From assembly GCA_965223265.1 (NCBI GenBank), contig OZ244999.1, forward strand, positions 640,001 through 704,000: a DNA stretch of 64,000 nucleotides, written 5' to 3'. The notes beneath the pieces were generated by a model, which worked only from the letters and a program-made list of their open reading frames with translations, was not told the DNA's origin and did no database searches. This document shows positions 890-62,400 of the stretch, one piece after another (the stretch's first letter is position 1; each line of letters opens with the position of its first letter). The stretch is from Planctomycetota bacterium. Lineage in GTDB: Bacteria; Planctomycetota; UBA8108; SXIK01. A program made the translations under genes and the position numbers.

Positions 890-3514
890 CTACTCGTGAG
901 CCTGGAACAGGATGTCGCTGCCGCCGCGGCCGTCATAGTTGCCGAGTCCGACCGTCCAATCGGTTTCTCTCACCATCCAGCTGCCGAAGAGCGTGCCGTG
1001 GCGAGTCATGTCGATATGCGTCATCGTTGGGCCGTCGCGGGTCAGGACACCATATCCCCAGCCGCTCCGGAGGAGGAGGTCGTCGGCGCCGTCGCCGTTG
1101 ACGTCGGCTATGCCGACAATGAAGTTGGCGGTGGAGTCGAAGTTCCAGTGGCCGAACCACGTTCCGTTCGCGCGCTGAACGATCGTGGCGAACGTTGTGC
1201 CGAATTCGACCAGCACGGCAATTCCCCAACTGCTCGTCACAATGATATCGTCGCGCCCGTCGCCGTTCATGTCACCGATACCGTTGAAGACGTCTCCACG
1301 GGCGTCGAACGTCCAACCGATGAACCGCGTGCCGTCACGAGCGACGACCGTGGACGTCAGGGTGCTGCCGCTCCGCGTCAGAGTGCCGATCCATAGCGCA
1401 CTTCGGATCAGGATGTCATCGCTGCCGTCACCGTTGAAGTCTCCGACACCGAGAATCGTGTTTTCGGAGCCACTGAAGTTCCAGCCGCCGAAGAACGTGC
1501 CACTCGACTTGGCGACGAGGGATGTGAAGCTGCTTCCCGCCAGCGTCAGAATGCCAATGCCGCTATTGCGCTTGACGAGGAGGTCGGTCACGCTGTCGCC
1601 GTTGAAGTCTCCGAGCCAGATGCGATCGGTCGCGGAGTTGAAGACCCAGCCTCCGAACGCCGTGCCGTTGGGCTGCACGACGAGCGACGTCAGCGTGTTA
1701 CCGCTGCGCGTCAAAACGCCGATGCCCCAGCCGCTTGTTACCACGATGTCGTCGCGGCCGTCACGGTTGAAATCGCCCACGCCGACGATCTTGTTGACTC
1801 TAGAATCGAAGTTCCAGCCACCAAACCAGCCGTTCGGCTGCGCGACCAGCGAGCGCCACCGACTGCCGTCGAAGGTGAGGATGCCGATGCCCCAGCTGCT
1901 CGTGATCAGGATGTCGTCGCGACCGTTGCCGTCGAAGTCACCGGAGTCTTCGATCGTGTTCGCTGTGCCGTAGTGCCAACCACCCGCCCAATCCTCTGCC
2001 GGCAGGATCGCCTCGTCGACGAGCTCTGATCCTTCGGCGACGATGATTCCGAGCCCCTTTTGACCCGGATCGTTCACGCACTCGCAGTCCCACGAATCGT
2101 ATCCGTCGATCAGGCGCAGTTGGTTGTCACCGGGGCACGCATCAATGTCGCCGCAGCGCTGTGCCGACAGCGAGATCACCTCGCTGATGCAGTTGCCGAT
2201 GATGTATGGCATGGTGTTGACTTGGAAGTGCCACGAGGGATCACCGCTGTAGCCGCAAGCGACGATGGCGTCATCCTGCTCGTTGGCGCCGTGGGTGTAG
2301 CCGTGGGTGTGCATGACTTCGTGCCAGACGATGCCTGCGGCCTGCGAGTACGGCCAAGGGTATGCTGCGAAGCGGCAGTCATCATCTCCCGGGTTCTCAC
2401 CGGAACCGCAAGTTCGTTTCGATAGCTGATCATGGACGGACGCCAGCCAGCCGCCCCAGCGAAACTCTTCGTCGCCGGTGTGCCCGAACGTGCCGATCCC
2501 GGTCGACGCGTTACCGCTACCGCCGCTGCAGAAGATGTTGACCGTGTTGACGCTGCGGCAAACTTCGAGGACCTTCTGGATCTGCACCTCGATGGCTTGG
2601 TCGAACCACGGATCCGTGTTGCATTGGCGATACGTCGACCGCAGCTTGGTGTCGACGCACTCTTCGAAGGCGCGCGAGACAGCGGCGATGCGGCCGTACT
2701 TCATGATGTCTTCGTTGAACTTCTGCAGGTCCGGCGAGCAGTCACCTTCAAACGTGATGTCTCCTAGAAGAGCCGCGTGAGTTGTGCCGAGAAAGTTGTT
2801 GTCAGGGTTGCAGTCGATTTCGTGCTGCGCAGAATCACCGAACAAGACCTCGAAGACGACCTCGAGCGTCACCGTGCGACTCAGGTCGTAGGAGAACTCC
2901 TGGTCGTACTCGATCGTCATGGTCTCGCCGGGGGCGAGTTCGAGGATGTTCTCGACGACTCGCATGGTTCGCGTGCCTTCGCTGTCCGTCTCGGTGAGAA
3001 TCGCCAGCGCGCTGCCCGGCACCGACGTAAACGGCACTGTCCCGTCGTTGCGAACCGTGGCGACGACACGCGTGACGCTCGTTGAGAACTCTGTCAGGTT
3101 GGCAAGCTCGAAGTCGATCGACACCGCCGCGAGATCGGCGCACAGGATTTCGACCGGACTCGAGCAGCGGTTCTTGCCACACGAGAGAGCGTCTGGGGTC
3201 GGATCGAAGCCGCAGCTGCCGAACGGCGCATTCGGTCGATCGCCGCCGACGAAGAGAAACCCGAGGAGATTCACCGGGTCGCTGATGTCGAGGACGCTGT
3301 CGTCGTTGACGTCGGCGGCCTTGTGGCAAGGCGGTTCAGCGCTGCTGTCGACGAAGAGATACGACAGCGCGCGCACCGCATCGGAGATGTCGACAGCACC
3401 GTCGTCATTGACGTCGCCGCGCTCAAATTGGTTCTGCGCCATCGCGACGTTCCCTGTTCCAAGAACGAGGCCACCGAGAAGAAAGAGCACGTAGCGAGCA
3501 TTGACCTTGAACAT
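890..3514 (-). CDS. Secreted protein: N-terminal dockerin-like domain, CARDB/Ig-like domain, metzincin zinc metalloprotease domain, C-terminal FG-GAP/VCBS repeat beta-propeller
   Basis: Likely start ATG 3514 (GAAAGGTG RBS) with signal peptide MFKVNARYVLFLLGGLVLGTGNVAMA. Duplicated loops RGDVNDDGAVDISD...ADVNDDSVLDISD. HEVMHTHGYTH fits HExxHxxGxxH. Six repeats of the form GDFNGDG.DDI...S.WGIG.L. Confidence 0.8.
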   Translation of the reverse strand: MFKVNARYVLFLLGGLVLGTGNVAMAQNQFERGDVNDDGAVDISDAVRALSYLFVDSSAEPPCHKAADVNDDSVLDISDPVNLLGFLFVGGDRPNAPFGSCGFDPTPDALSCGKNRCSSPVEILCADLAAVSIDFELANLTEFSTSVTRVVATVRNDGTVPFTSVPGSALAILTETDSEGTRTMRVVENILELAPGETMTIEYDQEFSYDLSRTVTLEVVFEVLFGDSAQHEIDCNPDNNFLGTTHAALLGDITFEGDCSPDLQKFNEDIMKYGRIAAVSRAFEECVDTKLRSTYRQCNTDPWFDQAIEVQIQKVLEVCRSVNTVNIFCSGGSGNASTGIGTFGHTGDEEFRWGGWLASVHDQLSKRTCGSGENPGDDDCRFAAYPWPYSQAAGIVWHEVMHTHGYTHGANEQDDAIVACGYSGDPSWHFQVNTMPYIIGNCISEVISLSAQRCGDIDACPGDNQLRLIDGYDSWDCECVNDPGQKGLGIIVAEGSELVDEAILPAEDWAGGWHYGTANTIEDSGDFDGNGRDDILITSSWGIGILTFDGSRWRSLVAQPNGWFGGWNFDSRVNKIVGVGDFNRDGRDDIVVTSGWGIGVLTRSGNTLTSLVVQPNGTAFGGWVFNSATDRIWLGDFNGDSVTDLLVKRNSGIGILTLAGSSFTSLVAKSSGTFFGGWNFSGSENTILGVGDFNGDGSDDILIRSALWIGTLTRSGSTLTSTVVARDGTRFIGWTFDARGDVFNGIGDMNGDGRDDIIVTSSWGIAVLVEFGTTFATIVQRANGTWFGHWNFDSTANFIVGIADVNGDGADDLLLRSGWGYGVLTRDGPTMTHIDMTRHGTLFGSWMVRETDWTVGLGNYDGRGGSDILFQAHE

Positions 3515-3764
3515 CCGAAGCACCTTTCGTGGAAGTGAGTGGTTGGCCAGGCGCGTCCATGCGCCCGTCACTGCAGAAGGGGCCACGAAAGGCCGGAGTG
3601 TGACTGGGTTTTTCGTGAGCGCCCGCTATGAAGCGGCGCTGGTGGTGCAAGTGGTTGATTCGTTGGGTCTTACGTCTTGGGCGGAGGCGGAGACAGAGGC
3701 GGAGGCGTAAATTCCGTTCCCAAGTCGGACGGATGGGTTGATGGGTTTTTCAACGGCCTGTTAA

Positions 3765-3895
3765 ACGCCGACGCACTCGCCCACGCCGACGCACTCGCCC
3801 ACGCCGACGCACTCGCCCACGCCGACGCCGACGCCCACGCCGACGCCCACGCCGACGCACTCGCCCACGCCCACGCCCACGCACTCGCAAACGCG
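3765..3895. repeat. Tandem repeat: 3 perfect copies of ACGCCGACGCACTCGCCC (18 bp) decaying into ACGCC(C/G) hexamers
   Basis: Units at 3765-3782, 3783-3800 and 3801-3818, then degenerate hexamers. Intergenic. Confidence 0.9.
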
Positions 3896-3973
3896 TATGC
3901 CCCAGCTCAGCGTTTCACCGAAATCTCCCCGCCCCTTCTCCTCGCATCGAGCGTCAATCGGCCGCACCACCCT

Positions 3974-4153: not shown

Positions 4154-4206
4154 TTACGGCTCCTGGCTACGGATTTTGGTGTTAGGTTAGGCTCGCTGCC
4201 GAGCCT

Positions 4207-6351: not shown

Positions 6352-6439
6352 CTCACATCACGCGCCGTCGAGGGATCAGGGAGGCCCGCGGCTCGATGAC
6401 TGAGACAGAGTCGGTCGGTGCAGGCTGTTGACGGAGCGA

Positions 6440-8422: not shown

Positions 8423-8473
8423 GGAGCTCAGTCTGCTCGAGGCGGGGCGGCTACACCGTCACACGCGGTTGCG

Positions 8474-20640: not shown

Positions 20641-23600
20641 TCATAGGCTGCACGTCGACTGCAGACACGAGATCGTGTCAGCAGTGGGATCTTCGTCGCA
20701 ATTCGCTCGCGGCTCTGGTAGCGACGTGCCGCGAAATAGGTTGAGGAGGATCGTGATCGCGTCGGTGACGTTGATTGAGCCAGAGTCATTCGCATCCGCT
20801 GCGTCAATACACTGGGGCTCCCGCTCGCCGCGGAAGAGATAGTTGAGCAGAGTGATCGCGTCGCTGATCTCGACGACGGAGTTGGCATCGACATCGCCGC
20901 GCCTGAATGTCGATGGTTCTCGATCTGAAATGGGCGCATGCACGCCTTGTCGGTAGCCGACGAAGTCGATCTGAACCGACCCGGGATTCGGACTGTCACC
21001 GAGTCCTATGGCGAGATAGTTGGCGTAGCGGGTCTCGGTCTCTCGCGGCGGGAGTGTGACCACGTCGTCGAATGTTGGCTCCGCGGCTCCGTTGAGGTAG
21101 AGCCGCACCCGATGTCCATCTTCAGCGGCCACGATCGTCGCCCAGACGCTCTGGAACTGTTGTGGGTCTGCGATGGGGACGGTGCCGCCCGGAAAGAGCA
21201 ACTCGCTGCCGTTCAGCGACAGGGAGAAAATCCGCCGCGCCGTGCGACCTCCGTCATGGACCAGCGTGATCTGGCCACGTCCGCCGACGATCTGCTGGCC
21301 GCTTGGCGCCTCAAGATCGGTGGGGTTTGGATTGACGCGCCAGCGCGCGACGAGCGTCGCCCCCTCGTCGAGCAATCGGTTCTCGTTCGTCAGACCGTCG
21401 AGCTCGAGATGCCGCAGGAGATAAATCGTGCCGTTGTCAGGAAGCGGGAGATCTGGATCTCCGGCGTCTTCGATGTTGAGTGTGGAGACCGCGGCGCCGG
21501 CTCCATCGGTGCTCGAGACTTGTTCGATGCGCACTCCACCAGGGGCACCTTCACCAGGAATCGATCCGTCCCAGCGATCGCTACGTGAGGAGCGGACCCA
21601 TTCGCCGTCGAGTGCTCCGAGCACGAGTGGAGTCACGACGTAGTCGGCCTCGTTGCCGCTGGCCTCATAAAGATAGTGAAAGCCCTCGTTCGGCGGCAGC
21701 CAGCCACCATAGTTTGGAGTCGGAAGAGCCTCGCTTGCAGCTGTCTCCTCGGCAGACTCTCCTCCTCGTGTGAGGGTTGAGATGCCGTACGTGTGAGCGA
21801 CTTCGGGCAATGCGTGCTCGTCCACGAAGAGGGAGCGCTGGAAGGCGTCGGAGGCGCGGGACAAGGTCGCAATTCTCTCGCCGTCGCGAGAGATATGAAA
21901 ACCGAGAACCTCGGCATCCGCTGCGTCTGGCGGTGACCACACAAGTTCGTGCCCTCGGGTGCTGCGCGAGCGCACGGTGAAATCCCGCGGCGCTGCGGGT
22001 GCTGGTCCCACGGCAGTACGAACGTGAAACGCGGTCGGCTCGGAAAGTAGGCTCCAGCGACCGGCGGAGTCGAGGTGGCGCACGCGAAACTCATACGATT
22101 CGCCGACGCTGAGGATCTCGTCGGGGAGGGTGACGCGATCGAGAGGCGAATCAATCTCGATCTCCCATATCGGAAAGACCCAGTCGCCCCCTTCCTTGAC
22201 CACAACCCAATGACTCCGCACGTGCGTGGATCCATCCGGTGAGAGGAGCGGCCGACTGCGTAGCTCGACAGGTAGCGTCACGTCGACGTTCGCGTCAGGA
22301 GACAGGTTGCGAGCGGGAGCCGGTCCTCTCAGATCGAGAAAAACCGTCGACTGCAGACTCGACTGCCGCCGGAACCAATCGGCAAGCAGGTCGACCACGT
22401 TGTCGAAGTCGTTGTAGCGATCGAGGCACTCCTCGCGGGGCGTCGTCAAAGGGCAGGTCAATCGTGTTTCTTTGTCCCACCGGTCGCGATCGGCGTTGGC
22501 TGCCTTCCGCAGGCGTGCGCGCTCGTCTTCGAGGATCCCGCTCAGCCGGTCCAGGTTGTAGAGAGTCTGCCACAGATAGCGGTAGCGGTTGTGATACTCC
22601 CGTTCGAACTTAGGCAAGACCTGGCGACTGATCGGATCGCTGATGTTGAGTTGGCGATCCGCGATCATCGTACTGTCGAGATCCCACGGCACTAGCTCCC
22701 ACTGCTTCGTTTCTGGGTTCTGGTAGTAGTAGAAATTGTGTCCGCCCAAGTCAGCGTGCTGTACCAGTTGCACAACGGCGCGAAACGAGAGGTAGCTCTC
22801 GAGGTTGACGTTCTCTTCGTACCACTCGCGAGTATCGATCGCGCTGTAGCCGTTGACGAACGCGTTGTAGTCGTCGAGCTCGGGCGAGCAATCCGGCGAT
22901 CTCTTGACAGGCCCACCCATTTTATAGATGCCCGCATCGATGGAAGGGCGACCTTGGTCTTCGAACATCACGTTGTCGATCTGCTGGATGTCGAGGTAGA
23001 CGCCGAAGAAGTCACCGTCATACTGCGTGTGCTCTGCAGCCGAATCGATCATGCGCAGATAGACCTGCGTCGTACGCGGGGACGGAACGCCAGCTTCACG
23101 GAAGAGCCGAAACCCCATTGTTTCGATGAGCCCGACGCCGCCGGTTGCGTCAGTGTTCGTGACGTGCTCATTGCTATTGAGGTTGAGTCTGCGGCGCGGA
23201 TTCTCATATGGGGTGCCGTCGTTGTAGCGGCCGCGAAATCGATTGCCCTTATTGAACTTGATTTTCCAATACCGCTTCTTGCGCAAGAAGCGCTGATTGC
23301 CACGGAGGCGAAACGGGACGTGATCGTAGACACGATTCTCGAAGACGAAGGAGCCGACCCAATAGTAGGTGTTGTCGTTGCTATCACGCGTCGCATCGTA
23401 GTGCGCCTCTTCAGTATCTTCGGCACGGGCGATGAGATGATAAACGGGGAGATCTGTCGGGTCAGCGTGGACGACGCCGGGATCGCCGAGGCGGCTGTCG
23501 ATGTCGGCGACGTAGTCGGGCACGCCGTCGTAAACGAAGAACGCGTAGTTCGGTTCCGGATCGCCGAGGCGCGGTGCGACGCTCTCGGCGCCGAATGTGT

Positions 23601-30751: not shown

Positions 30752-31903
30752 ATGAAAACGATACGAAGTACGACGATTACGCTGACCTTGCTCGCTGGGC
30801 TCTTGGTGTCGCCGCAGGTCATAGGTACTGAAGGCGAATGGAAGCGTCACGTGGTTCATTCGGGGTTTCATACCTCCACAGCAGTGGCTGCGGATTTCAC
30901 CGGTGACGGCAAAGTCGACGTCATCGCCAATAGCGGCAGCAAGACGCGCCTGTTGATCGCTCCGGACTGGCGGGAGCTTGTGATCGATAACCGACCTGGG
31001 CACGACTTCATCCATAGTGAGGTCTGGGACATTGACGGCGACGGCGATCCTGACTTCGTCGGTGCGCGTTACAGCCCAGGGCTCATCGTTTGGCTGGAGC
31101 GGCCGCAACGCCCCGAGATCGAACCATGGCCGTGTCATAAGATCGACGAACAGGTCAACGGTGTCCACGGTGTCATCAAGGGTGACATCGACGGTGACGG
31201 TCGTATCGACTTGCTCGCCAACAGTGGCCAACCAAAAGGGCCGTTCGCGAATTCGCTCGTCTGGTACAAAGCACCCAAGTTTCCCTCTGGTGCGAGCTCC
31301 TGGAAACGAACGGTATTCGCCAAGGGCGACGCGCCAGGCCTAAGCCACTATCTCGGCTATGGAGACATCAACGGCGACGGACGCCCTGACGCGGCGAGCG
31401 CGGCGAAAGGCGGCCCGTATGCTGACCCGGGAACCGGTGACTGGTTCGCCTGGTGGGAGGCGCCCGAGAATCCGCACCAGGTGTGGAAGAAGCATCGCGT
31501 CGGCGGCAAACAACCCGGTGCCACAAACATTCACCCAGTCGACGTCAACGGCGATGGACGTGTTGATCTTCTCGCGTCGAGAGGACACGGCCGTGGCGTG
31601 GTATGGTTTGAGGCTCCGGACTGGATTGAGCACGTGATCCACGCGTCGTTTCACGGCCCGCACTGCCTTGTCGTTGTCGACATGGACGGTGACGGCGACA
31701 TTGACGCCGCAAGTTGCGCCAAGGACGACAAAGTCGCGGCTTGGTTCGAGAATGACGGGCGGGGCAATTTCACCACCCATGTTGTCGGACGGGAACAAGC
31801 TGCTTACGACATTAGAGCTGTCGACATGGATGGCGACGACGACCTCGACCTCCTCATCGCGGGGCAGGCGAGCAAGAACGTCGTTTGGTACGAACACCCG
31901 TAG
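30752..31903 (+). CDS. Secreted FG-GAP/VCBS repeat beta-propeller protein
   Basis: Signal peptide plus seven D(I/V/M/F)xGDGxxD repeats with W.E.P / W..H linkers. Confidence 0.85.
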   Translation: MKTIRSTTITLTLLAGLLVSPQVIGTEGEWKRHVVHSGFHTSTAVAADFTGDGKVDVIANSGSKTRLLIAPDWRELVIDNRPGHDFIHSEVWDIDGDGDPDFVGARYSPGLIVWLERPQRPEIEPWPCHKIDEQVNGVHGVIKGDIDGDGRIDLLANSGQPKGPFANSLVWYKAPKFPSGASSWKRTVFAKGDAPGLSHYLGYGDINGDGRPDAASAAKGGPYADPGTGDWFAWWEAPENPHQVWKKHRVGGKQPGATNIHPVDVNGDGRVDLLASRGHGRGVVWFEAPDWIEHVIHASFHGPHCLVVVDMDGDGDIDAASCAKDDKVAAWFENDGRGNFTTHVVGREQAAYDIRAVDMDGDDDLDLLIAGQASKNVVWYEHP

Positions 31904-41327: not shown

Positions 41328-44300
41328 ATGAAGTTCTTACACGAAACGAAGCGAAAGACTCTGAGTAGGTCCTCGTTGCGCTCGATCCCCACGACGCTCG
41401 GACTCGTCGCTGCGATCGTGCTCGACGCTGGCATTGCCGTCGAATCAAATGCCGCCGACTCCGATGTCGTCATCAGTGAGATCCACTACCATCCCAGCTT
41501 CAGTAGCGAACGGAGTGAATACATCGAGCTTTGCAACCGCGGCTCGGAGCTCGTCGATCTCAGTGGCTGGGCGTTCACGCGGGGAATCACGTTCACCTTC
41601 GATCTGGGTGTTTTGCTTGAGCCAAAGAGCTGCCTTGTCGTCGTCGCCGATGAGGACGGTTTTCGGGCCGCGCGACCGAGACCTGATGTCCACATCGCCG
41701 GGACATATTCTGGTCGTTTGCGCAATAGCGGCGAGCGTGTCGAACTGGCGAACGCTAGTGGCGAGACGATCGAGCGATTAACCTATTCGGACACCTTTCC
41801 GTACCCGACGCTGCCGGACGGCGGTGGCCCGCCTCTCGAGCGCCGTAGCCTGGCGGCTGATAACGACCGCGCAAACAACTGGCGTGTGGGCTCACCGCAG
41901 TGGCAGTTTTACGACCTCACAGCGGCGCCAACCGAATCGACGTTGGTCCTTCGTCTTCTCGGAGCGGGAGAGGCGTTGATCGACGAGCTCTCGATGACGC
42001 TCGAAGGCGACTCGACACCGTTGATCCCCGATGGCGGCTTCGAGGCGGGAATTGAGGGCTGGGTTTTCTTCCCGGGGCATGACGATTCGCGTCATGAGAC
42101 GGAAGAGACCTATGCAGGGGAAGGAGCCTTGCGACTGACGTCGGTGGGGTCCGCTTCTCGTTCGTCGAACGCCCGTTTTTCGATTGAGCCGCCGCTGCCT
42201 GAAGGCGCCGTCGTGCGGTTGTCGTTCTGGGTGCGTTCCCTCAGCGGTGTCGGCCTCCTCGAAGTCGGAAGCCGCCGAGAGTCGTTTGGAGCGCTTGAAC
42301 TCCTCGGAAGTCCGGGGGCGCTCAATTCGGACAACCTCTCGGAGCTTCCCCCGGGAATTCTCGCAGCCCGAACAATTCCGAAGATGCCGACGTCCTCAGA
42401 GCCAGTCACCCTATTGGTCCAGGTAGAAAGTGATGCCGACGGCGCCGCTGTCGCAGCGTTGACGGCGCAGCTTCACGATGGCACGAGCACATCGGAAGTG
42501 ACGCTGGCAGACGATGGCCTGTCGGGCGACGGTGAAGCAGACGACGGCATCTGGGCTGGCGAGCTGCCGCCCCGCCCTCACGGGACGTTCGTCCGCTATC
42601 GACTTGTCGTCGAAGACGCCAACGGACTTCAAGATCAGTTCCCGATACCAGGGGAACCCACGCCGAGTCGCGCGTACTACGTAAACGACACGCCTTCCGA
42701 TTCGAATCTGCCGACGTTCGGCCTGTTCCTCTCCGCGGCGTCCCTCGAACGGCTCAACCGCACGCCAGATGTCTATCAGCCTGGCTCATTTCTTTTCGAC
42801 GGCGAAGTTTATGATCTCGCGATTGGCTTCGATGGCGAGCCGCTGCAGCCGATCAATGCTACGAGCAACAGCGGTAGATACGGCATTCGGCACCGCGGCA
42901 GCAACTCTTTAGGCAACCCTAAACGACCGTGGAAGGTCAAGTTTCCCAAGGATCACCCGTTCGAGCGCGGGGAGGATCCCGAGCGGTTCGGAACGAGTCG
43001 GCGCCGCATCAATTTCAACGCGCTTTGGACCAACAAAGACTTGATCCGTGAGGTGTTGGCGCACGTCACGTTTCAGGATCTCGGCAACACCCATTGTTAC
43101 ACCGAACACTGCCGCATCGAGCTCAACGGAGATTTCCATGGGCTCTACATGCATATCGAACAGCCCGACACGGAATTTTTGTCGCGTAACGGTCTGAACG
43201 ACGATGGCGAGCTTTGGAAATCGATCGAGGGCGGCGAGGCGAAGTCACCAGGAAACTACGAGAAAGAGACGCGCGAAGACTTAGGCCTGACAAATCTTGC
43301 CGATTTCGTCAGGGAGCTCAACCGCACGCAAAACGACACTGAGAGGCGAGAGTTCATCGACAGCCGCGTCGACGTCCCCAACTTTCGTGACTATCTTGTT
43401 GGGACGGCGCTCATCTCGAATGCCGACCATCCGCACAAGAACCACTATATGTACCACGATGTCGAGACCGGCCTGTGGACACAAACGCCGTGGGATCTCG
43501 ACTTGACCTGGGGGCAAAACCACGAGTGCGACGGCGGCTGTATAGGCGGGATGCTCCCCGAGGGAGGATCGGGTCGCGACTGCCTGCGCTGGAAGAATCA
43601 CATCCTCTTGGGGAGTCGTCGCCACCAGAAGTGCGACGGCAAGTGGAACGCGATGATCGAGGCTTTTTTCACGAGTGAAAAACATAATGGCCTCTTTCGT
43701 GACCGTGTCCTGAGCCTGTTGGAGCAGTATTTCACCGTCGCCAACCTTGAACCGATCATCGACGATTTGCGTGACGAGATCCGCGTCGACGCCGAGCTCG
43801 ATCGCGAGAAGTGGGGATCGTGGGGCGATTCGAGGACGTGGGATATCGACGAGCGAGTCGCGGAGCTGAAATGGTGGATCGATCAGCGTCGACAGTTTCT
43901 GCTCGATTCGATTCCCGCTCCACTCACCGATCTGAGTTGTGGGGTGACAGAGCAGCGCGAAATCGAGTTGACGTGGTCGGGCGATGGAGACTACCGCACC
44001 ATCTTGGTTCGCGTCGGCTCTCCCGGTGAGTGGGGAGAGCGCTTTGAGAGCTTTCGCGGCGATGCCAGATCGGAGTTGGTGCCGGTGCCTAGTTCGATGA
44101 GCGGCACCGTGGTCGTGCACGTCTCAGCGCTCGGGCGTGCGGACGTATATACACCGGAGCTTACGTGCACACTCGAGCTCGCGCCTGTGACTTTTGTTCG
44201 CGCCGACGTCACCCGAGACGGTTCCCTCGCGCTCGACGACGCCGTTGAAATGATCCGTTTCCTCTTCTCTTCGCGCGATCCTCTCCCATGTCTCGAGGCT

Positions 44301-44465
44301 GGGGACGCCAACGCGGACGCTGAGATCGATGTTTCGGATCCGATCTTCATTCTCAACCACGTCTTCGGCTCGGGTGAAGCCCCGGCGTCTCCCTACCCGA
44401 CATGCGGGCCTGTCACTGGCGCGTTCGCCTGTAGCCTCGGCGGGTTCTGCGAGAATTCTCGCTGA
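41328..44465 (+). CDS. Secreted lamin-tail / CBM-like / CotH kinase protein with C-terminal dockerin-like domain
   Basis: VISEIHYHP...EYIEL.N lamin-tail domain, IPDGGFEAG.EGW CBM4/9-like segment, LADDG..GDG.ADDGIW motif. CotH motifs RHRGS..KRPWKVKF, NAD..HKNHYMY and PWDLD. C-terminal FVRADVTRDG...AGDANADAEIDVSD. Confidence 0.85.
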   Translation: MKFLHETKRKTLSRSSLRSIPTTLGLVAAIVLDAGIAVESNAADSDVVISEIHYHPSFSSERSEYIELCNRGSELVDLSGWAFTRGITFTFDLGVLLEPKSCLVVVADEDGFRAARPRPDVHIAGTYSGRLRNSGERVELANASGETIERLTYSDTFPYPTLPDGGGPPLERRSLAADNDRANNWRVGSPQWQFYDLTAAPTESTLVLRLLGAGEALIDELSMTLEGDSTPLIPDGGFEAGIEGWVFFPGHDDSRHETEETYAGEGALRLTSVGSASRSSNARFSIEPPLPEGAVVRLSFWVRSLSGVGLLEVGSRRESFGALELLGSPGALNSDNLSELPPGILAARTIPKMPTSSEPVTLLVQVESDADGAAVAALTAQLHDGTSTSEVTLADDGLSGDGEADDGIWAGELPPRPHGTFVRYRLVVEDANGLQDQFPIPGEPTPSRAYYVNDTPSDSNLPTFGLFLSAASLERLNRTPDVYQPGSFLFDGEVYDLAIGFDGEPLQPINATSNSGRYGIRHRGSNSLGNPKRPWKVKFPKDHPFERGEDPERFGTSRRRINFNALWTNKDLIREVLAHVTFQDLGNTHCYTEHCRIELNGDFHGLYMHIEQPDTEFLSRNGLNDDGELWKSIEGGEAKSPGNYEKETREDLGLTNLADFVRELNRTQNDTERREFIDSRVDVPNFRDYLVGTALISNADHPHKNHYMYHDVETGLWTQTPWDLDLTWGQNHECDGGCIGGMLPEGGSGRDCLRWKNHILLGSRRHQKCDGKWNAMIEAFFTSEKHNGLFRDRVLSLLEQYFTVANLEPIIDDLRDEIRVDAELDREKWGSWGDSRTWDIDERVAELKWWIDQRRQFLLDSIPAPLTDLSCGVTEQREIELTWSGDGDYRTILVRVGSPGEWGERFESFRGDARSELVPVPSSMSGTVVVHVSALGRADVYTPELTCTLELAPVTFVRADVTRDGSLALDDAVEMIRFLFSSRDPLPCLEAGDANADAEIDVSDPIFILNHVFGSGEAPASPYPTCGPVTGAFACSLGGFCENSR

Positions 44466-49157: not shown

Positions 49158-49169
49158 GTCGTTTCCGAG

Positions 49170-54613: not shown

Positions 54614-57600
54614 ATGAAGAGTCTCCTCCCTATGGCCGCGCCTATTCGACATCCTGCGACACGAGCAAAACGGACACGGTTGACCGCCGCTGTGTTGCTC
54701 CTGTTGACGTGTCCGTCGACAGACTCGCTGCACGCGTCCGTGGTCATCAGCGAAGTCCACTATCATCCGCCGGCGCCGCACGACGTCGCGGACGAGTTTG
54801 TCGAGCTCTACAACTCGGGACCAACCGTTGCCGATCTCAGCGGCTGGAGACTTGTGGGCGGTGTTGAGTACACCTTTCCGGATGGGGCGAGCATCGAGGC
54901 TGCAGGCTGCGTTATCGTGACTCGAACTACGGGAGCCGCCGACGAGCTTGGGGTGACAACCGTTGAGTCAGTGTTTGCGCACTACTCAGGGGCACTCGCG
55001 AACGATGACGATCACTTTGTGCTCGTCGATGCGCATGAGCGCTACGTCGATGACGTGGTCTACGGTGACCGCGGATTCTGGCCCGAAACGGCGGACGGGG
55101 GCGGAGATTCGCTTCAGCGTCAGTGCGTGGACGCAAGTGGTCGTAACGTGGCGAATTGGCTCGCGGCGCCACCGACGCCACTTGTTCACGTCGTCGGAGG
55201 TATTTGTCCGCCGCCCGAGCTTCCAACGCCGCGCCTCGTGATCAACGAGATTCATTACCATCCGTTCGGCAGCGACAGCGATCGACCGATTGGCGATGAC
55301 GGCGAGGTGGCTGAGTTCCTTGAGCTGAGGAACCCCAGCTCTTCGGCGCTCGACGTGGGTGGGTGGCGCTTGAGTGAGGGCGTCGAGTATGAGTTCCCCC
55401 CGCAGAGCGTCATTCCACCGGGCGGGTTCGTCGTGCTGGCACGCGATCCCGAGTCTCTGCGGGATAGCTTTGAGTTGCCACCCGACGTCGTCGTAGCGAA
55501 GTACGAAGGTCGACTTTCCAATCGCGGCGAGCGACTGACGGTTGTGGACGCGTCTGGCGACGTGGTCGAGAGCCTCCGCTATGACGACAGCGGTCAGTGG
55601 CCCTACATGGCGGACGGTTTCGGTCGAAGCCTCGAGCGCATCAGCGCCTTTGGTGCCAGTGGGGACCCGGTCAATTGGCGAGCCGGAGAGGTCGGCGAAC
55701 ATCGCTTTCGAACACTCTTCGGCGAGGGTCCCAAGAGCAACGGGTTTTCGCAGATCTTGATCTTGGCTCTGCCGGGAACCGGCGAGGCCATCATCGATGA
55801 GGTGGTTCTGCAGGATCTCAGCGACGGCGACCGTCGCAATCTCATCGTGAACGGTGGATTCGAAAGCGGTCTCGAGGGCTGGAGGCTGAGAGGGAGCGCG
55901 TCGAACTCGGTTTGGGATCCGGCGGCTGGTGTCGACGGAGGGGGAGCCCTTCGGCTTGTCGTTGATGGCCCCTGTTCATTTTCCCAGTGCGGTGTCAACG
56001 ACGCCGTGTCGATTCCGGTGTCGATTCCGTTCAATAGTCAGTCGACATTCCGGTTGACGCTCAGTGTCCGTTACGTCTCAGGAAGCCAAGAACTGTTTGC
56101 GGGTCTCTTCGATGGCGTCCAGGCGACAGTCACCCGCACCATGACGCCGGGCCGCACGAATGTCGTTGCCTCCGATGAAATCCCGCCGTCGGTTGACTAC
56201 GTCGGCCGCAGTCCACGACGTCCCACTTCGAGTGACAGGACCACCATCTCGGTCCGCGTCCGCGGCGATCCTACAGAAGTCACGCTGCACTACGCTCCCG
56301 GCGAGGCCGGCGACTTTGGTGTGCTGCAGCTCTTCGACGATGGTGCGCACGACGACCGCGACGCAGGAGATGGCGTTTTCGCCAACGAGATTCCCCCCTT
56401 CGAGCACAACACGCAGGTGCGTTATTGGGTGCAGGCAGCTCGCGGTCCCGTCGCGACCCAGTTTCCGCGCTCGAGTGTTTTCGCGGATCCACGTGGCGAC
56501 GAGTTGCGCGGCTACTACGTCAACGACCTGCAGGAGTCCGAATCGATTCCCACTTATCATCTCCTGATCGACGGCATTGACGGCAGCGATTGGGTCGCTG
56601 TCAACGACTTCCTTAGGTGCTCGGAGCTGAAGCGAGCATCGTTCGCCTTCGATGGAGAGCTCTATCCCGACATCGGGCTGCGGTGGCGAGGTAATACAGC
56701 GTGCGTCATCGACAAGCGAAACTTTAAAGTGCGGTTCAACAAGGCGCTCCCGTTTCGTAGTCTGCGTAAACTCAACTTCAACGGCCTTTGGACCGACAAA
56801 TCTCTTGTTCGTGAACGTCTGGCGTGGGATTTCATCGACCAGTTGGGGGCGCCTCAAATCCGTACGGAGTATGCACGCATACACGTCAGCGGCTCCTACT
56901 ATGGGCTGTATCTCTGCCTTGAACATCCGGATGAGCGATTTCTCCGACGCAACGGCCTGGATGTCTCCGGCAGCTTTTACAAAGCTCGGCAGCCGCCGCC
57001 GCGCCGCATAAACGAGCCTATTGAATCGGCGCTTTCGATCCAGCCGTCTGGAACCTACGATGCGAGGTGGGAAGAAGAGATCAACGAAGGCGGGGATTTT
57101 TCTGATGTCGAGTCGTTCGTCGTCTCCATGCACGCTGCCGCGCGATCGGTCGCCGATGTTACGTTTTTTCTCGACAACACGTTTCCCAACACGGTGATCG
57201 ATTTTCAGTTGACGCAGGTGCTGTTGAACAACATCGACAGCGCCATCAAGAACCATTTCCTCTACCACAGCCTCGAGCAAGGGCGTTGGGGTTTCTTTAC
57301 TTGGGATATGGATCTCGTGTTTGGCAAGTTCTTCCTCCGCGACGCGGCCGACATCGAAGCCGGCCGACAGACAGGCACACTCAACGACTTGATGCTGAGT
57401 GATTTGATGGGAGACCTGCGGCCGTTCTTCATGACGACGCTCGACGGCGATCGCGAGTTCAATTGGCTGGTGGAGTATTTCTTTACCGCAGGCGAAGGCT
57501 ACTTCCAGCGCGCCTATCTCGTAAGGCTTTGCCGGATTCTAGAGGAGAAGCTAAAGGAAACCTCCTATGCGCCGCAGCTCGATTCGCTCGCGAGTTTGTT

Positions 57601-58498
57601 GTGGGAGGAGCAGACCATCGATTTTGAGCGCTGGGGACGGTATCCGTCGAACGTCGAGAACTTCCCGGAGGATATGCTGAGCAACCTTGAGATTGTTGAA
57701 GACCAAATCTCGAAGCATCGTCGCTTCCTCGCAGGGTTTGTTCGGCAAGAGCACGCTGACATCATGAACGCGCCGGTGCTGCGTATCTCGGAGATCATGT
57801 ATCGTCCCATGCGAGACGAACTGGAGTTCCTCGAGCTCGTGAACGTTTCGCCTCAGGACGTTGACGTTGGTGGCTGGGCGGTCGTTGGCATCGGCTACAC
57901 TTTTCCCGCGCGAACCGTCGTTGCGGCAGGTGAGACGGTCGTCTTAGCTAAGTCACCGCGCGCGCTGCGTGAAGAGGCAGGGCTGGGTGCTGAAGTGGCA
58001 GTGTTCGGGCCGTATCCAGGGAGGCTCGCGAACGACGGCGAGCTTCTCCGCGTCGAGGATTCCGGACCGGGATTCCCTGCGACCGTCGATCTTGTCAGAT
58101 ACCGTCCCGGTGAGGACTGGCCTGAGACTCGCCCGGGCTATAGTCTTCAGCTCTTGCGCGTCTCGCGATCCACTGACAACGACTCCGCGTCTGCGTGGAC
58201 CGTGTCCTCTGCGCTCGGCGGTGACCCAGGGAGCGGTGTGCAGCACTTCGTCCGCGGTGATGCCAACGCGGACGAGCGCCTGAACGTGTCCGACGCGATT
58301 TTCGTTCTGCTCTTTGTGTATCGCGGCGGCCAGGAGCCGATCTGCCTCGACGCGGCGGACGCAAACGACGACGGTTTGCTCGATCTTGGGGACGCCGTAA
58401 CCCTTCTCGGACACCTTTTTGGTGCCACCGAAGTGCTTCCAGAGCCATATCCTGAGATTGGGCCCGATCCGACAAGTGACACGTTAGGTTGCCGATGA
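54614..58498 (+). CDS. Secreted lamin-tail (x3) / CBM-like / CotH kinase protein with C-terminal dockerin-like domain
   Basis: Lamin-tail starts ISEVHYHP, INEIHYHP and ISEIMYRP. LIVNGGFESGLEGW. LFDDG.HDDRDAGDGVF. CotH motifs RWRGNT..KRNFKVRF, NID..KNHFLY and WDMD. Dockerin FVRGDANAD...ADANDDG...GPDPTSDTLGC. Confidence 0.87.
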   Translation: MKSLLPMAAPIRHPATRAKRTRLTAAVLLLLTCPSTDSLHASVVISEVHYHPPAPHDVADEFVELYNSGPTVADLSGWRLVGGVEYTFPDGASIEAAGCVIVTRTTGAADELGVTTVESVFAHYSGALANDDDHFVLVDAHERYVDDVVYGDRGFWPETADGGGDSLQRQCVDASGRNVANWLAAPPTPLVHVVGGICPPPELPTPRLVINEIHYHPFGSDSDRPIGDDGEVAEFLELRNPSSSALDVGGWRLSEGVEYEFPPQSVIPPGGFVVLARDPESLRDSFELPPDVVVAKYEGRLSNRGERLTVVDASGDVVESLRYDDSGQWPYMADGFGRSLERISAFGASGDPVNWRAGEVGEHRFRTLFGEGPKSNGFSQILILALPGTGEAIIDEVVLQDLSDGDRRNLIVNGGFESGLEGWRLRGSASNSVWDPAAGVDGGGALRLVVDGPCSFSQCGVNDAVSIPVSIPFNSQSTFRLTLSVRYVSGSQELFAGLFDGVQATVTRTMTPGRTNVVASDEIPPSVDYVGRSPRRPTSSDRTTISVRVRGDPTEVTLHYAPGEAGDFGVLQLFDDGAHDDRDAGDGVFANEIPPFEHNTQVRYWVQAARGPVATQFPRSSVFADPRGDELRGYYVNDLQESESIPTYHLLIDGIDGSDWVAVNDFLRCSELKRASFAFDGELYPDIGLRWRGNTACVIDKRNFKVRFNKALPFRSLRKLNFNGLWTDKSLVRERLAWDFIDQLGAPQIRTEYARIHVSGSYYGLYLCLEHPDERFLRRNGLDVSGSFYKARQPPPRRINEPIESALSIQPSGTYDARWEEEINEGGDFSDVESFVVSMHAAARSVADVTFFLDNTFPNTVIDFQLTQVLLNNIDSAIKNHFLYHSLEQGRWGFFTWDMDLVFGKFFLRDAADIEAGRQTGTLNDLMLSDLMGDLRPFFMTTLDGDREFNWLVEYFFTAGEGYFQRAYLVRLCRILEEKLKETSYAPQLDSLASLLWEEQTIDFERWGRYPSNVENFPEDMLSNLEIVEDQISKHRRFLAGFVRQEHADIMNAPVLRISEIMYRPMRDELEFLELVNVSPQDVDVGGWAVVGIGYTFPARTVVAAGETVVLAKSPRALREEAGLGAEVAVFGPYPGRLANDGELLRVEDSGPGFPATVDLVRYRPGEDWPETRPGYSLQLLRVSRSTDNDSASAWTVSSALGGDPGSGVQHFVRGDANADERLNVSDAIFVLLFVYRGGQEPICLDAADANDDGLLDLGDAVTLLGHLFGATEVLPEPYPEIGPDPTSDTLGCR

Positions 58499-61400
58499 AA
58501 CTGACGCAGGTATTCACGTTGGCCAAACTCGCACTTCAACCTTGGCGAGCTCGAGCGACACCGAGAGCGTCGTCACTGGGGATGTTCATCGCCTTGTTCT
58601 GCGCAATCGAGGTCCCTGCCGTCGTGATCACCGAAATTCACTACCAGCCGCCCGCCCCCGAGGCGAAGCGACTTGAGTTCGTCGAGCTCTACAACCCTTC
58701 GGCCCTTGCCGTCGATCTTGCTGGTTGGCGCCTTGAGCGGGGCGTCCGCTTCGAGTTCCCCGCCGGTGCCGTCATCCCTGCAGGGGGGTATGTCGTCGTT
58801 GCCAGGAATCGTGCAGCATTGGCGGCGGAATCGGAACTCGAAACCGACTCACTGTTCGGTGACTTCAAGGGGTCGCTCGCCAACGAGGGGGAAGAGATTC
58901 TTGTCGTCGATCACCTGGGCGTCTATGTCGACAGCGTGATGTACGACAACTCTCGACCGTGGCCGTCGGCCGCTGCGGGGGACGGCAGTTCTCTACACCG
59001 GATTTGCGGCGAGGAAGACGGATTTCTGCACACGAATTGGACTGGGTTGTCGCCGACGCCGGGTGCCGGACACGCGTTCGCCCGCTGTCCAGCGCCCGCC
59101 TTACCTATACCTCCCCTCGCGATCAACGAGATCTTTTACCACCCGGTGCAAGGCAGCGAGCTGATCGTCGTCGGCGATGACGGCGAGGCGAGCGAGTTTA
59201 TCGAACTCGTCAATACGAGCGGTGCGGCGCTCGACGTCGGTGGTTGGCGATTCTCGAATGGAATTCGTTATGAGTTCCCAGCTGGGACGATCATTCCAGC
59301 GGACGGCGTCGTGGTCTTGGCTAGGGACGCGACTGCGGCCTCTGTTGAGCTCGTAGACCCGGGAGTTTTTCTCGATCAGTACGAGGGGCGCCTCTCGAAC
59401 CGCGGCGAACGTGTCACCCTCCTAGACGCAGCTGAGACCGTGGTCGACAGCGTCAAGTACCTTGACCATGGAAAGTGGGCTTACGGCCCGGATGGGTTTG
59501 GACGATCGCTTGTGCGTATGAGTGTCGATCGACCGACGGACGATCCTGCCAACTGGGTCGGCTCGACGGTGAAAACCGGTGGATTTCAGGTTTTGCAAGG
59601 GACGGGAGGCCGAAGTCCTGGACTCGCGCCGCAGCAACTGGTGATCGCTATCGATGGAGAAGGAGAGGCGATCGTTGACGGTGTTGTCCTTGAAGACGTG
59701 GCCAACCCCGGCGTCAATCTGATCGACAACGGTGATTTCGTCGGTGGAATGCAGGGCTGGACAGCTGAGGGGGCTGCGGCGTTGTCTGAGTGGTCGCCTA
59801 CCGGCGGCGTCGATGGTGGTGGCGCTCTGCGACTGGTCTCGACGGGGCCATGCGGCGACGAGCAGTGCCGATCGGCTCAAGGTGTGTGGGCGGCTCCCAA
59901 TGCGCTTCTTAGCTCGACTGCGACGTATCGCTTGCGCCTCTCAGTCAAGCATATCAGCGGCAGTGTCGCGGTGCAGTCGGGCCTCGTCCTTGGCGTGCGA
60001 GCGACGACCCTACACTCGGCCGGGGAAGCGAGCGCCGTCGATTCTGCGGCACCCTTCATCGACCACGTCGCGAGGTTTCCGCGACAACCCTCGTCGGTCG
60101 ACAAGACTTGGTTGGTCGCTCGAGTTCGCGGCGTCGACCCAGGAGCGCCGACGGTGCGCATGGAGTACAGAGTCGGAGTCGACGGTGTCCTTCAAGAGCT
60201 GTTGCTGGTGGACGACGGTAACCATTTGGACCGAGATCCCGGCGACGGAATCTTCGGTGTCGAGTTGCCAGCGTTCGCGGGCGACACGCAGCTGCGTTAT
60301 CGATTCGAGCTCACGTCGACGAGTGGCACCCGTGAGTATCCCGAGCCGCTGACACCAGGCGCCGCGCTTGGCGAGGAGCACCTCGGATACTATGTCAGTG
60401 ACGCGGAAAACCCGACTGATCTGCCGACGTTTCACATCTTGCTGCCTGGTGTCGACGGGACTGATTTTCGCGCCGTCAACGCCCATCTGCTGTGCGATTT
60501 TCTGCAGCCTGCCTCTTTCGCCTTCGAGGGCGATCTTTACCCCGACGTGGGGGTGCGATGGCGCGGCAACACAGCGTGTGGCATCGACAAACGAAACTTT
60601 AAGATCCGCTTCAGTAAAGCGCAGCCATTTCGCGGTCTGCGCAAGATGAACTTCAACGGCCTCTGGACCGACAAGTCACTCATGCGTGAACGTGTCGCGT
60701 GGCAGTTTACGCGTGAGCTTGGGATGCCCTACGTCGAAACCGAGTATGGTCGCGTTCTGATCAACAGTGACTACTATGGCTTGTTTCTTTGTCTTGAGCA
60801 TCCTGATACGCGCTTCATGAGGCGTCTCGGCCTTGACACGAATGGGAGTCTCTACAAGGCGAAGCAACCGCCGTTTAACCCTGATCCAGCGGTGGTCATA
60901 CCAGGCGTCGTGGAGCGCGAGGTGGGTGCGTACCCGGACGGCTGGGAGGAAGAGGTCAACGAAGGTCGAGATTTCTCGGACATCGAGGAGTTCGTTGGCT
61001 CGATGCACGCCGCGGGGGTTGGGCCGATGTCACTCGATTTTTGGCAGACACGCTCTTTTCCCGAACTGATGATTGGATTCCAGGTCGCACAGGTCGTGCT
61101 TGGTAATTTCGACAGCGCGACGAAGAACCACTTCCTGTACCACGATGTCGATGAGGGGCGATGGGCTATCCTGAGCTGGGATCTTGATTTGGTTCTCGGG
61201 AAGTTTTTCGATCTGAATGCCATAAATCCCAACGAAGGCCGTCAACAGGGAACGCTGAACGACGTCATGATGAGCCAGAACTCGGAGGTTCAGGGGCTCC
61301 TCACGCCGTGGTACATGTCGACCGTCAATCGCAATCCGAGGCGCAATTGGGCGATCGATTTTTTCTTTCGCGCTGGCGATGGCTTCTATCAACGAGCTTA

Positions 61401-62400
61401 TCTTGTTCGCCTGCTCCAGATCCTCGAAGAGAAGTTCCGGCTCCCCGAATTCTCCGATCGGCTCGATGAATTGTTCGAATTTCTGTTCGTGGCGCAGGCG
61501 GAAGACTTCGACCTTTGGGGGCGTTACCCGTCCAATGTCCAAGGCTTCCCGGAGGACATGGCGGGCAACCTGTTGATCATCGAGCGCGAGCTCGACGCGC
61601 GTCGGGACTTTCTTCTCAACTACATCGCGACAAATCACGCCGAGATCTTGTCTACACCGCGCGTCAAGATCAGCGAAATCCTTTTTCTCTCGCCGCGCGA
61701 CGCGGAGCTTGAATTCGTCGAGCTGACGAATGTCTCCGCTGCGAGTGTGAACCTTCGCGGTTGGACGATCGACGGAATCGGATATCAGTTCCCCACAGAC
61801 GAAGACGTTGTGTTGCCAGCTGGTGGAGTCGTCGTCGTCGCAAGGGATCCGCAAGCTCTGGAGGCGGCGGCCCGGGACGGCGACATGCCGGCCCTTTTTG
61901 GGCCCTACAGCGGGCGCCTCAACGATGCAGGAGAAGAACTCAGGCTGCTTGACGCTGGACCGGGGTTTCCGGCCACCGTTGACTACGTCGCATATTCCTG
62001 CGGTGGTGATTGGCCCGAGATTGAGCCCGGATTCAGCGTGCAAATGGTCGACGTCGCTGCCGGGCGTGACAACGACCTGCCGACGGCATGGGTGCAGTCG
62101 GCGAGTCGGGCTGGAAACCCGGGCAGGACGCAGCCGGAGTTTCGGCGCGGGGATGCCAACAGCGATGAGCAGATCGATATCTCCGACGCGATCTTCGTGC
62201 TGCTTCATCTCTTCGTCGTTCCTCAGGATCTCCGCTGTTTCGACGCGGCGGATAGCAACGACTCCGGAAACGTCGATCTTTCGGATCCCATAGCGCTCCT
62301 GAATCACCTGTTTCGCGGCGAAGCGAGCCCGCCGCCGCCGGCGCCCTATCCGGGGCGTGGCGTCGACCCGACGGCGGACGACCTCACCTGCGGCGACTGA
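58495..62400 (+). CDS. Paralog of the upstream gene: lamin-tail (x3) / CBM-like / CotH kinase / dockerin-like protein
   Basis: ATG 58495 overlaps the upstream TGA (ATGA). Same domain order, with shared blocks RWRGNTAC.IDKRNFK.RF, NFNGLWTDKSL.RER, GEG/GDG..QRAYLVRL and WGRYPSNV..FPEDM. Dockerin FRRGDANSD...GVDPTADDLTC. Confidence 0.87.
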   Translation: MKLTQVFTLAKLALQPWRARATPRASSLGMFIALFCAIEVPAVVITEIHYQPPAPEAKRLEFVELYNPSALAVDLAGWRLERGVRFEFPAGAVIPAGGYVVVARNRAALAAESELETDSLFGDFKGSLANEGEEILVVDHLGVYVDSVMYDNSRPWPSAAAGDGSSLHRICGEEDGFLHTNWTGLSPTPGAGHAFARCPAPALPIPPLAINEIFYHPVQGSELIVVGDDGEASEFIELVNTSGAALDVGGWRFSNGIRYEFPAGTIIPADGVVVLARDATAASVELVDPGVFLDQYEGRLSNRGERVTLLDAAETVVDSVKYLDHGKWAYGPDGFGRSLVRMSVDRPTDDPANWVGSTVKTGGFQVLQGTGGRSPGLAPQQLVIAIDGEGEAIVDGVVLEDVANPGVNLIDNGDFVGGMQGWTAEGAAALSEWSPTGGVDGGGALRLVSTGPCGDEQCRSAQGVWAAPNALLSSTATYRLRLSVKHISGSVAVQSGLVLGVRATTLHSAGEASAVDSAAPFIDHVARFPRQPSSVDKTWLVARVRGVDPGAPTVRMEYRVGVDGVLQELLLVDDGNHLDRDPGDGIFGVELPAFAGDTQLRYRFELTSTSGTREYPEPLTPGAALGEEHLGYYVSDAENPTDLPTFHILLPGVDGTDFRAVNAHLLCDFLQPASFAFEGDLYPDVGVRWRGNTACGIDKRNFKIRFSKAQPFRGLRKMNFNGLWTDKSLMRERVAWQFTRELGMPYVETEYGRVLINSDYYGLFLCLEHPDTRFMRRLGLDTNGSLYKAKQPPFNPDPAVVIPGVVEREVGAYPDGWEEEVNEGRDFSDIEEFVGSMHAAGVGPMSLDFWQTRSFPELMIGFQVAQVVLGNFDSATKNHFLYHDVDEGRWAILSWDLDLVLGKFFDLNAINPNEGRQQGTLNDVMMSQNSEVQGLLTPWYMSTVNRNPRRNWAIDFFFRAGDGFYQRAYLVRLLQILEEKFRLPEFSDRLDELFEFLFVAQAEDFDLWGRYPSNVQGFPEDMAGNLLIIERELDARRDFLLNYIATNHAEILSTPRVKISEILFLSPRDAELEFVELTNVSAASVNLRGWTIDGIGYQFPTDEDVVLPAGGVVVVARDPQALEAAARDGDMPALFGPYSGRLNDAGEELRLLDAGPGFPATVDYVAYSCGGDWPEIEPGFSVQMVDVAAGRDNDLPTAWVQSASRAGNPGRTQPEFRRGDANSDEQIDISDAIFVLLHLFVVPQDLRCFDAADSNDSGNVDLSDPIALLNHLFRGEASPPPPAPYPGRGVDPTADDLTCGD

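Follow-up and report, generated by a model that had tools for sequence, protein, structure and literature searches.

The window considered here is a stretch of 64,000 nucleotides (contig OZ244999.1 of assembly GCA_965223265.1, positions 640,001 to 704,000, forward strand) from a Planctomycetota bacterium whose genome of 9.18 Mb is contained in one contig. Five proteins encoded in the window share a module of about 90 residues, found by local alignment in all five translations. The core of this module resembles the dockerins, which bind cohesins in cellulosomes, and the same module occurs on some 300 proteins of the genome. The five genes (positions within the window) and their modules are the following, each with the evidence for it.

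Gene 1, 890..3514, minus strand: signal peptide, N-terminal dockerin, linker domain of about 125 residues, HExxHxxGYTHG (metzincin-like) domain and FG-GAP propeller (translation, Pfam FG-GAP and a weak Dockerin_1 match, hydrophobic N-terminus).
Dockerin module 1, 3152..3436, minus strand: four-Cys form, N-terminal (alignment; hidden Markov model (HMM), independent E-value (i-E) 5.1e-40).
Gene 2, 20641..25137, minus strand: two LTD, CotH, long C-terminal region and dockerin, with an uncertain start codon (Pfam LTD, CotH, and Dockerin_1 at 23.9 bits).
Dockerin module 2, 20644..20925, minus strand: four-Cys form, C-terminal, the sequence used for the structural model (alignment, AlphaFold2 model, Foldseek).
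Gene 3, 41328..44465, plus strand: LTD, CBM-like region, CotH (full-length match) and dockerin (Pfam CotH 2.4e-47).
Dockerin module 3, 44166..44462, plus strand: four-Cys form, the most divergent, with RAD for RGD and DPT absent (alignment; HMM i-E 1.1e-35).
Gene 4, 54614..58498, plus strand: two LTD, CotH, LTD and dockerin; tandem paralogue of gene 5 (translation, Pfam).
Dockerin module 4, 58229..58495, plus strand: two-Cys form (alignment).
Gene 5, 58489..62400, plus strand: two LTD, CotH, LTD and dockerin; its start overlaps the end of gene 4 (translation, Pfam).
Dockerin module 5, 62116..62397, plus strand: two-Cys form (alignment).

Translation and alignment confirm the placement given in a preliminary description of this DNA, N-terminal in the first protein and C-terminal in the others. 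The module directly follows a signal-peptide-like stretch in the product of gene 1 and ends 0-4 residues before the stop in the products of genes 2-5. The N-termini of all five proteins contain a hydrophobic window of 12 residues (Kyte-Doolittle 2.2-2.8), consistent with export. LTD and CotH domains are recognized by Pfam in four of the five proteins, and FG-GAP in the fifth. The CotH family (PF08757) is over its cut-off in all four, with E-values from 2.4e-47 to 2.9e-21. Genes 4 and 5 overlap at 58489-58498, where gene 5 could begin at the TTG at 58489 or at an ATG that slightly precedes the gene 4 stop; this overlap of the open reading frames (ORFs) suggests translational coupling.

Assembly through cohesins and dockerins is the textbook principle behind cellulosomes, and synthetic biology makes wide use of it. 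Two tandem calcium-binding loops (D-x-[ND]-x-[DN]-G...D) are present in all five modules and in the genome-wide consensus. The five window modules were aligned with 19 full-length copies drawn at random from the rest of the genome (A2), and the profile of this alignment matches solved dockerin structures, 4fl4_A at 2.6e-6 together with 2y3n_B, 1daq_A and 2mte_A. The solved dockerins are matched by positions 10-65 of the profile only, and its final 30 positions match nothing. Since the core matches dockerins and the ends do not, the F-x-R-G head and the Pro/Cys tail appear to be additions; the preliminary description had likewise set the cysteine tail outside the classical dockerin core.

The AlphaFold2 model of the gene 2 module has a mean predicted local distance difference test (pLDDT) score of 81, with residues 11-70 at 92-98 and the tail at about 50, and it contains helices at residues 20-32 and 53-65, after two calcium-type loops. 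When this model was compared with the PDB by Foldseek, the best match was 4uyp_B (root-mean-square deviation (rmsd) 1.6 A over 64 columns, probability 1.00), and among the matches listed, down to rank 31, all 26 rows were dockerin chains. The type-I rows typically showed an rmsd of about 1.6-2 A over 57-68 columns and a TM(target) of 0.75-0.79. At the level of the genome, Pfam Dockerin_1 gives at least 137 matches at E<=0.01 from the best 150 of 481 candidates scored. NCBIfam places no family on the module in the five proteins; it recognizes choice-of-anchor X and XAC2610 fragments elsewhere in them. Judged by profile and by model, the core of the module is a type-I-like dockerin of a lineage-specific subfamily, with two EF-hand-like calcium loops, each with a helix, as the preliminary description had proposed.

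The number of copies in the genome was obtained, along the lines suggested in that description, with an HMM built from the five window modules and run over stop-to-stop ORFs. This HMM gives 369 domain matches in 337 ORFs at E<=1e-3. Under a strict cut (i-E<1e-5) there are 320 domains in 307 ORFs, 276 of them full length. Matches on this scale indicate that the similarity between the modules is due to homology and not to chance. The consensus reads F-x-RGD-x-N-x-DG-x-[VLI]-D-[ILV]-S-D-A...LF...P-x-C-x-D-A-A-D-x-NDDG...S-D-A...LF-x-GG-x-PPPAP-x-P-x-C-G-x-DPT-x-D-x-L-x-C.

The module lies within 30 residues of the stop in 239 of the 307 carriers, is N-proximal in 48, internal in 10, and present in 2-3 copies in another 10. 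The predominance of C-terminal copies, on hundreds of exported proteins with unrelated cargo, is what would be expected if the module were a sorting or secretion signal for an export or attachment machinery, like the C-terminal domain of the type IX secretion system or PEP-CTERM, with no cohesin ligand. On the other hand, the N-proximal copies stand after the signal peptide, the multiple copies are interleaved with cohesins, and the module is a folded dockerin core of 60 residues and no short signal. Cellulosomal dockerins are also mostly C-terminal. A sorting signal is consequently regarded as quite unlikely, and docking onto cohesins remains the favored function of the tag.

Within this large set, the five window proteins do not stand apart. 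They had been presented as a unit, a view that fails on two counts: they are five of about 307 carriers, and the mean pairwise identity of their modules (42%) is the same as that of random pairs from the genome. In a FastTree phylogeny of 276 modules, the nearest neighbors of the window modules are dikinase-borne, CotH-borne, scaffoldin-borne or other; with the neighbors differing and the identity at background, the five dockerins are ruled out as one specificity group. As a positional cluster they are weakly supported. The expectation per 64 kb is 2.14 carriers and five are observed, a mild excess (Poisson P(>=5)=0.066), and the tandem CotH paralogues account for part of the count. Further carriers lie near the window, two within 7 kb upstream and two within 19 kb downstream. 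The module HMM finds exactly five copies in the window and no sixth. A short Dockerin_1 match, distinct from the module, is seen in an FG-GAP protein at window 30752-31903 (residues 254-272), and is probably a calcium-loop resemblance within the FG-GAP repeats. The five proteins are ordinary members of a larger system, with four predicted atypical kinases of the LTD-CotH type and one FG-GAP protein that is putatively metzincin-like.

The partners of dockerins, the cohesins, are encoded outside the window. None is found within the 64 kb by Pfam or by the iterated HMM described here, as had been noted at the outset. The genome-wide search with Pfam Cohesin (PF00963), which had been recommended in the preliminary description, yields 14 matches at E<=1, of which three exceed the cut-off, and all 14 are in ORFs that also bear the dockerin module. 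An HMM iterated from six PF00963 segments extends the set to 39 ORFs with 68 cohesin-like domains; the strong domains number 54 and lie in 34 ORFs. The profile of an alignment of 20 of these modules from 10 ORFs (A1) matches 3l8q_A at 1.2e-9, with nothing but cohesins and scaffoldins in its top 14 rows. One of the scaffoldins supported in this way lies at genome 4090498-4092531. A structural model of the cohesin module (pLDDT 92.5) retrieved by Foldseek, among the matches listed, cohesins in all rows, the best at 4.7e-8 and with TM of about 0.7. Profile and predicted fold thus verify these modules as cohesins with the same beta-sandwich, and the cohesin partner suggested for the module is made plausible by the many that the genome encodes.

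The cohesin proteins have varied architectures. One of 1292 residues carries five cohesins and a dockerin, two paralogues carry three cohesins and a dockerin, and two-cohesin proteins also occur. A scaffoldin with three cohesins lies at genome 4547203-4549164. In other proteins the order is dockerin-cohesin-dockerin or dockerin-cohesin-dockerin-cohesin-dockerin. Since the scaffoldins themselves bear dockerins, the assemblies could form hierarchies or networks. Three distinct cohesin subtypes are combined in the multi-cohesin scaffoldins, whose terminal dockerin is of a distinctive subtype with one additional Cys pair. Two proteins of 322 and 399 residues (genome 4316641-4317606 and 5614303-5615499) contain two full dockerins and one or two partial repeats, with no cohesin or other domain detected, and are possible cross-linkers. 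In the protein at genome 3876097-3877062, a cohesin is followed by a divergent double calcium-loop segment (..NLDGGVDISDP.. / ..NGDGTHDISDP..) with a module HMM score of 0.15, which may represent a second dockerin type.

Clustered at 35% identity, the cohesins form about 30 groups, a number that suggests many specificities and not a single one. In the five modules, the residues at positions 10 and 11 of the two loops (IS/IS, IS/VT, LD/VS, VS/LG and IS/LS) are read in the alignment exactly as first described. Their similarity had been taken as a sign of one common partner. This step does not hold, given the multiplicity of cohesin clusters and given that a hydrophobic residue followed by Ser/Ala at these positions is the near-invariant consensus of the whole family, so that the two positions do not discriminate between partners.

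The sole cohesin protein that lacks a dockerin is encoded 66 kb upstream, at genome 572938-574458. Besides its cohesin it has a signal peptide, a PKD domain and, towards the C-terminus, a hydrophobic helix (residues 409-427, Kyte-Doolittle 2.59) followed by Arg, and these features make it a candidate membrane anchor of the system. No SLH domain was seen in the cohesin proteins scanned with Pfam. With one candidate anchoring cohesin only, and with R9, G10 and D11 of the module conserved at 93-98% genome-wide, it may be asked whether the module docks onto a partner other than a cohesin, such as an envelope glycan or another repeated surface protein, with R-G-D as an adhesion motif. The conservation of the RGD is explained structurally, because D11 is, by sequence and model, the first calcium ligand of loop 1, and the co-expanded cohesins are the simpler partner. 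Docking onto a non-cohesin partner is very improbable, and cohesins are retained as the expected ligands.

The tail of the module is rich in Pro and follows the motif P-x-P-x-C-G-x-D-P-T-x-D-x-L-x-C(-x5-6-C). The linker Cys (C39) is present in 99% of the copies, the Cys of the L-x-C segment (C88) in 90% and the Cys of the C-G segment (C77) in 70%. Among the 276 full-length modules, 178 are of the four-Cys form and 62 have the C39 and C88 pair only. C77 is accompanied by the trailing Cys, which follows L-x-C by 5-6 residues, in 188 modules; the two stand alone in 6 and 16, and both are absent from 66 (n=276). A third, optional Cys pair is found in the two calcium loops (columns 12 and 43), together in 36 modules and singly in 8 and 1. 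The Fisher test for the pairing of the Cys gives P = 8e-41, a value that is overstated because the paralogues are not independent. From this paired presence and absence, which is the pattern expected of disulfide partners, we infer that the linker Cys would bond with the L-x-C Cys and, optionally, the C-G Cys with the trailing Cys. The tail would in this way be tied back onto the domain. A beta-bridge between residues 6-7 and 85-86 of the model hints at a clasp.

Such a tail would be a covalent version of the intramolecular clasp of dockerins, suited to an oxidizing extracytoplasmic compartment. In the clasp of Ruminococcus flavefaciens ScaA and other dockerins, contacts between residues of both termini stabilize the calcium-bound fold, according to passages of Slutzki et al. 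2013 (PMC3821032). The terminal contacts would be shared with the present module, through a conserved N-terminal Phe and a tail that turns back towards the N-terminus. The clasps in those passages are non-covalent stacking interactions, whereas here a tail of about 30 residues with one or two probable disulfides would take their place.

The distribution of the two families was followed in two samples. Among 41 genomes sampled from the same family, order and class (A2 at E<=1e-6), the module is present in every one (41/41), and 37 of these, including genomes of 2.8-3 Mb, have at least 125 matches. In a phylum sample of 120 other genomes, evenly drawn and at least 80% complete (E<=1e-10), it is present in 5/5 genomes of the same order or class and in 2/115 others, with one and two matches. 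The cohesin profile follows the same pattern, with 24 to at least 32 matches in each of the 5/5 same-class genomes vs 1/115 of the others. The three-cohesin scaffoldin has homologues in 38/41 class genomes (E<=1e-30), and its full-length orthologues are 40-56% identical. Among 1.84 billion protein-cluster representatives, A2 matches 26,176 at E<=1e-10. The dockerin and cohesin families jointly mark out this class, an association whose statistical reading is confounded by kinship.

This distribution bears on the explanation, raised together with the initial observation, that the module is a calcium-binding appendage with a stabilizing or solubilizing role and no protein partner, the cohesin-like modules serving another purpose. 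Such an appendage would fit the excess of dockerins over cohesins, about 5 to 1, and the fact that the A2 profile also matches generic EF-hand proteins, e.g., SCaMC-1 and polcalcin. It is opposed by the co-expansion of cohesins and the dockerin subfamily in the same class, with near absence elsewhere in the phylum, by the finding of all 14 Pfam cohesin matches in module-bearing proteins, and by a fold that matches dockerins solved in complex with cohesins (rmsd 1.6 A). The appendage is accordingly judged unlikely, and the pairing with cohesins is preferred.

The 307 carriers fall into 156 cargo clusters. Pfam was applied to 40 cluster representatives, comprising all 15 clusters with at least three members and 25 random ones of the 121 small non-cohesin clusters. 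None of the 40 contains a glycoside-hydrolase catalytic family (16 of them have no family at all), which agrees with the initial view of a non-cellulosomal system. The largest cargo family includes 63 paralogues of about 1800 residues (e.g., genome 5608540-5613951), with FG-GAP propellers, PPDK_N (the ATP-binding domain of pyruvate phosphate dikinase) and a C-terminal dockerin. The second, with 45 members, combines LTD and CotH. CotH ORFs are unusually many in the genome (53), and 47 of these bear the dockerin tag. The remaining cargo includes subtilase, purple-acid-type phosphatase, glucose/sorbosone dehydrogenase, lysyl oxidase, FGE-sulfatase, cytochrome c554, VWA, Spondin_N, CHRD, DUF1800, several propellers and an RHS-repeat protein. 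A protein of 2920 residues with RHS repeats (genome 7934564-7943323) has an N-proximal dockerin (residues 114-198) and Glucodextran_B domains.

Kinases and a protease had been named as the cargo of the window modules. The kinase part is supported by the CotH domains of the four proteins, while for the protease there is a motif and no Pfam peptidase match. The motif, HExxHxxGYTHG, lies at residues 422-432 of the gene 1 product and is invariant in 11/11 aligned homologues. The region concerned (window 1997-3151, minus strand) is an uncharacterized domain family with many conserved Cys. It has no Pfam match, no sequence match in the PDB and no homologue in 40 class relatives at 1e-10; its best ESM-Atlas score, 0.76 to M35 peptidases, is a lead only. 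Worldwide there are 67 homologues, most of about 665 residues and usually fused to FG-GAP or ricin-type lectin domains, and the source names of three of them point to Bacteroidota and Myxococcota. Among the 11 aligned, only the window protein and a 61%-identical relative have the N-terminal dockerin. Since the homologues of other phyla lack it, the dockerin would be a lineage-specific addition. The middle domain of gene 1 is likely a new zinc-metallopeptidase-like family, and the label of protease is reasonable although unproven.

In the mechanism that is proposed, the tag would dock exported proteins, in a calcium-dependent manner, onto the cohesin modules of about 39 scaffoldin or adaptor proteins. 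The scaffoldins that bear dockerins would then build hierarchical or networked assemblies, and the cohesin protein without a dockerin (genome 572938-574458) would anchor the assembly in the membrane. Several observations weigh against this proposal. Pfam Dockerin_1 (PF00404) matches two of the five window modules, at 23.9 bits (cut-off 22.9) and 21.4, and gives nothing at E<=0.01 on the other three. The best Foldseek E-value of the dockerin model is 2.4e-3 (4uyp_B), and none is at or below 0.001. The strongest members of the iterated cohesin set get no Pfam Cohesin match, which is the reason for their separate check by PDB profile and fold. Of the 39 cohesin ORFs, 37 themselves show a dockerin, in part or in full, which is a puzzling architecture, and about 320 dockerins face about 68 cohesins and one plausible anchor. 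As the Cys tail is modeled at pLDDT of about 50, the clasp and its disulfides are drawn from covariation among paralogues, which are not independent. Finally, CotH kinases and PPDK-like dikinases, which depend on ATP, make up much of the cargo, an odd feature in an assembly outside the cell. With these points taken into account, it is still fairly probable that clasped type-I-like dockerin tags on about 300 exported proteins dock onto the cohesins of about 39 scaffoldin/adaptor proteins.

A broader proposal is doubtful. The whole class might use the cohesin-dockerin pair as a proteome-scale address system, with a disulfide-clasped dockerin on 300 or more exported proteins in each large genome and on over 100 in genomes as small as 2.8 Mb. 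About 30 cohesin types on inter-docking scaffoldins would allow combinatorial envelope assemblies, whose dominant cargo would be ATP-dependent kinases and dikinases, not hydrolases. If true, no larger cohesin-dockerin interactome would be known, and the system would imply an organized phosphorylation chemistry outside the cytoplasm.

Other genes of the window were noted as well. An ORF of 1380 residues at 8474-12616 combines HEAT repeats with a neutral-ceramidase N-terminal domain, and an ORF at 17994-20021 fuses a sulfatase to leucine-rich repeats. Pfam families that are hallmarks of planctomycetes (PSCyt1-3, PSD1-5, DUF1501 and DUF1552) are also found in the window and assign the organism to Planctomycetota.

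The system described here is of interest as a natural cohesin-dockerin system unrelated to plant-cell-wall degradation and conserved across a class of largely uncultured planctomycetes. A cysteine-clasped dockerin could give sturdier, orthogonal docking parts. The dominance of CotH and PPDK-like proteins raises the question of the role of ATP-dependent enzymes in an exported, scaffolded assembly. Cohesin and dockerin modules outside cellulosomes were reportedly found by Peer et al. in 2009, mostly as isolated single modules per genome, a situation that differs from the proteome-scale, co-expanded pair of families seen here.

With the type I pairs of clostridial and ruminococcal cellulosomes (PF00404 and PF00963; e.g., PDB 4uyp, 4dh2 and 1ohz) the system shares the folds of dockerin and cohesin, and it likewise has multi-cohesin scaffoldins and adaptors formed by a cohesin plus a dockerin. 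It differs from cellulosomes in its Gram-negative-type planctomycete host, in the lack of glycoside hydrolases among the 40 sampled cargo families, and in the F-x-RG head and the Pro-rich tail with 2-4 Cys, which are matched by no solved dockerin. A further difference is that no SLH or sortase anchor is seen in the proteins scanned. In numbers, excerpts of published accounts give 222 dockerin proteins for R. flavefaciens FD-1, the most elaborate cellulosome producer reported, 143 with 41 cohesins for A. cellulolyticus, and 73 with 29 cohesins for C. thermocellum, against 307 carriers in the present genome. CotH-like domains fused to dockerins are described in bacterial and fungal cellulosomes, with an unclear role, in passages of PMC12484212; here, in contrast, CotH is a dominant cargo (47/53 tagged), is accompanied by LTD and has no cellulolytic context.

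A close precedent is the planctosome, which passages of Andrei et al. 2019 (ISME J, PMC6461901) put forward as a hypothesis for the Nemodlikiaceae from cohesin and dockerin modules without a cellulolytic context. The model in those passages comprises one LTD-cohesin anchor, one adaptor and two peptidases. Both would be non-cellulolytic systems of Planctomycetes with LTD proteins, peptidases and adaptors that combine dockerin and cohesin. In the passages on the planctosome LTD is part of the cohesin anchor and the complex is small, whereas here LTD is carried by dockerin-bearing CotH proteins, and there are hundreds of carriers and about 30 cohesin types. The same passages mention neither a Cys tail nor this scale, and a search of one literature library by titles and abstract openings retrieved no description of a Cys-extended dockerin or of a system of this size; the word planctosome is used in only six papers of that library. 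The basic idea is in print as a hypothesis, to which the present window adds scale, anatomy and distribution and not a new principle. The kind of system is already known; what sets this one apart is a putatively clasped dockerin subtype, together with its scale, its conservation across the class and a cargo dominated by kinases and dikinases.

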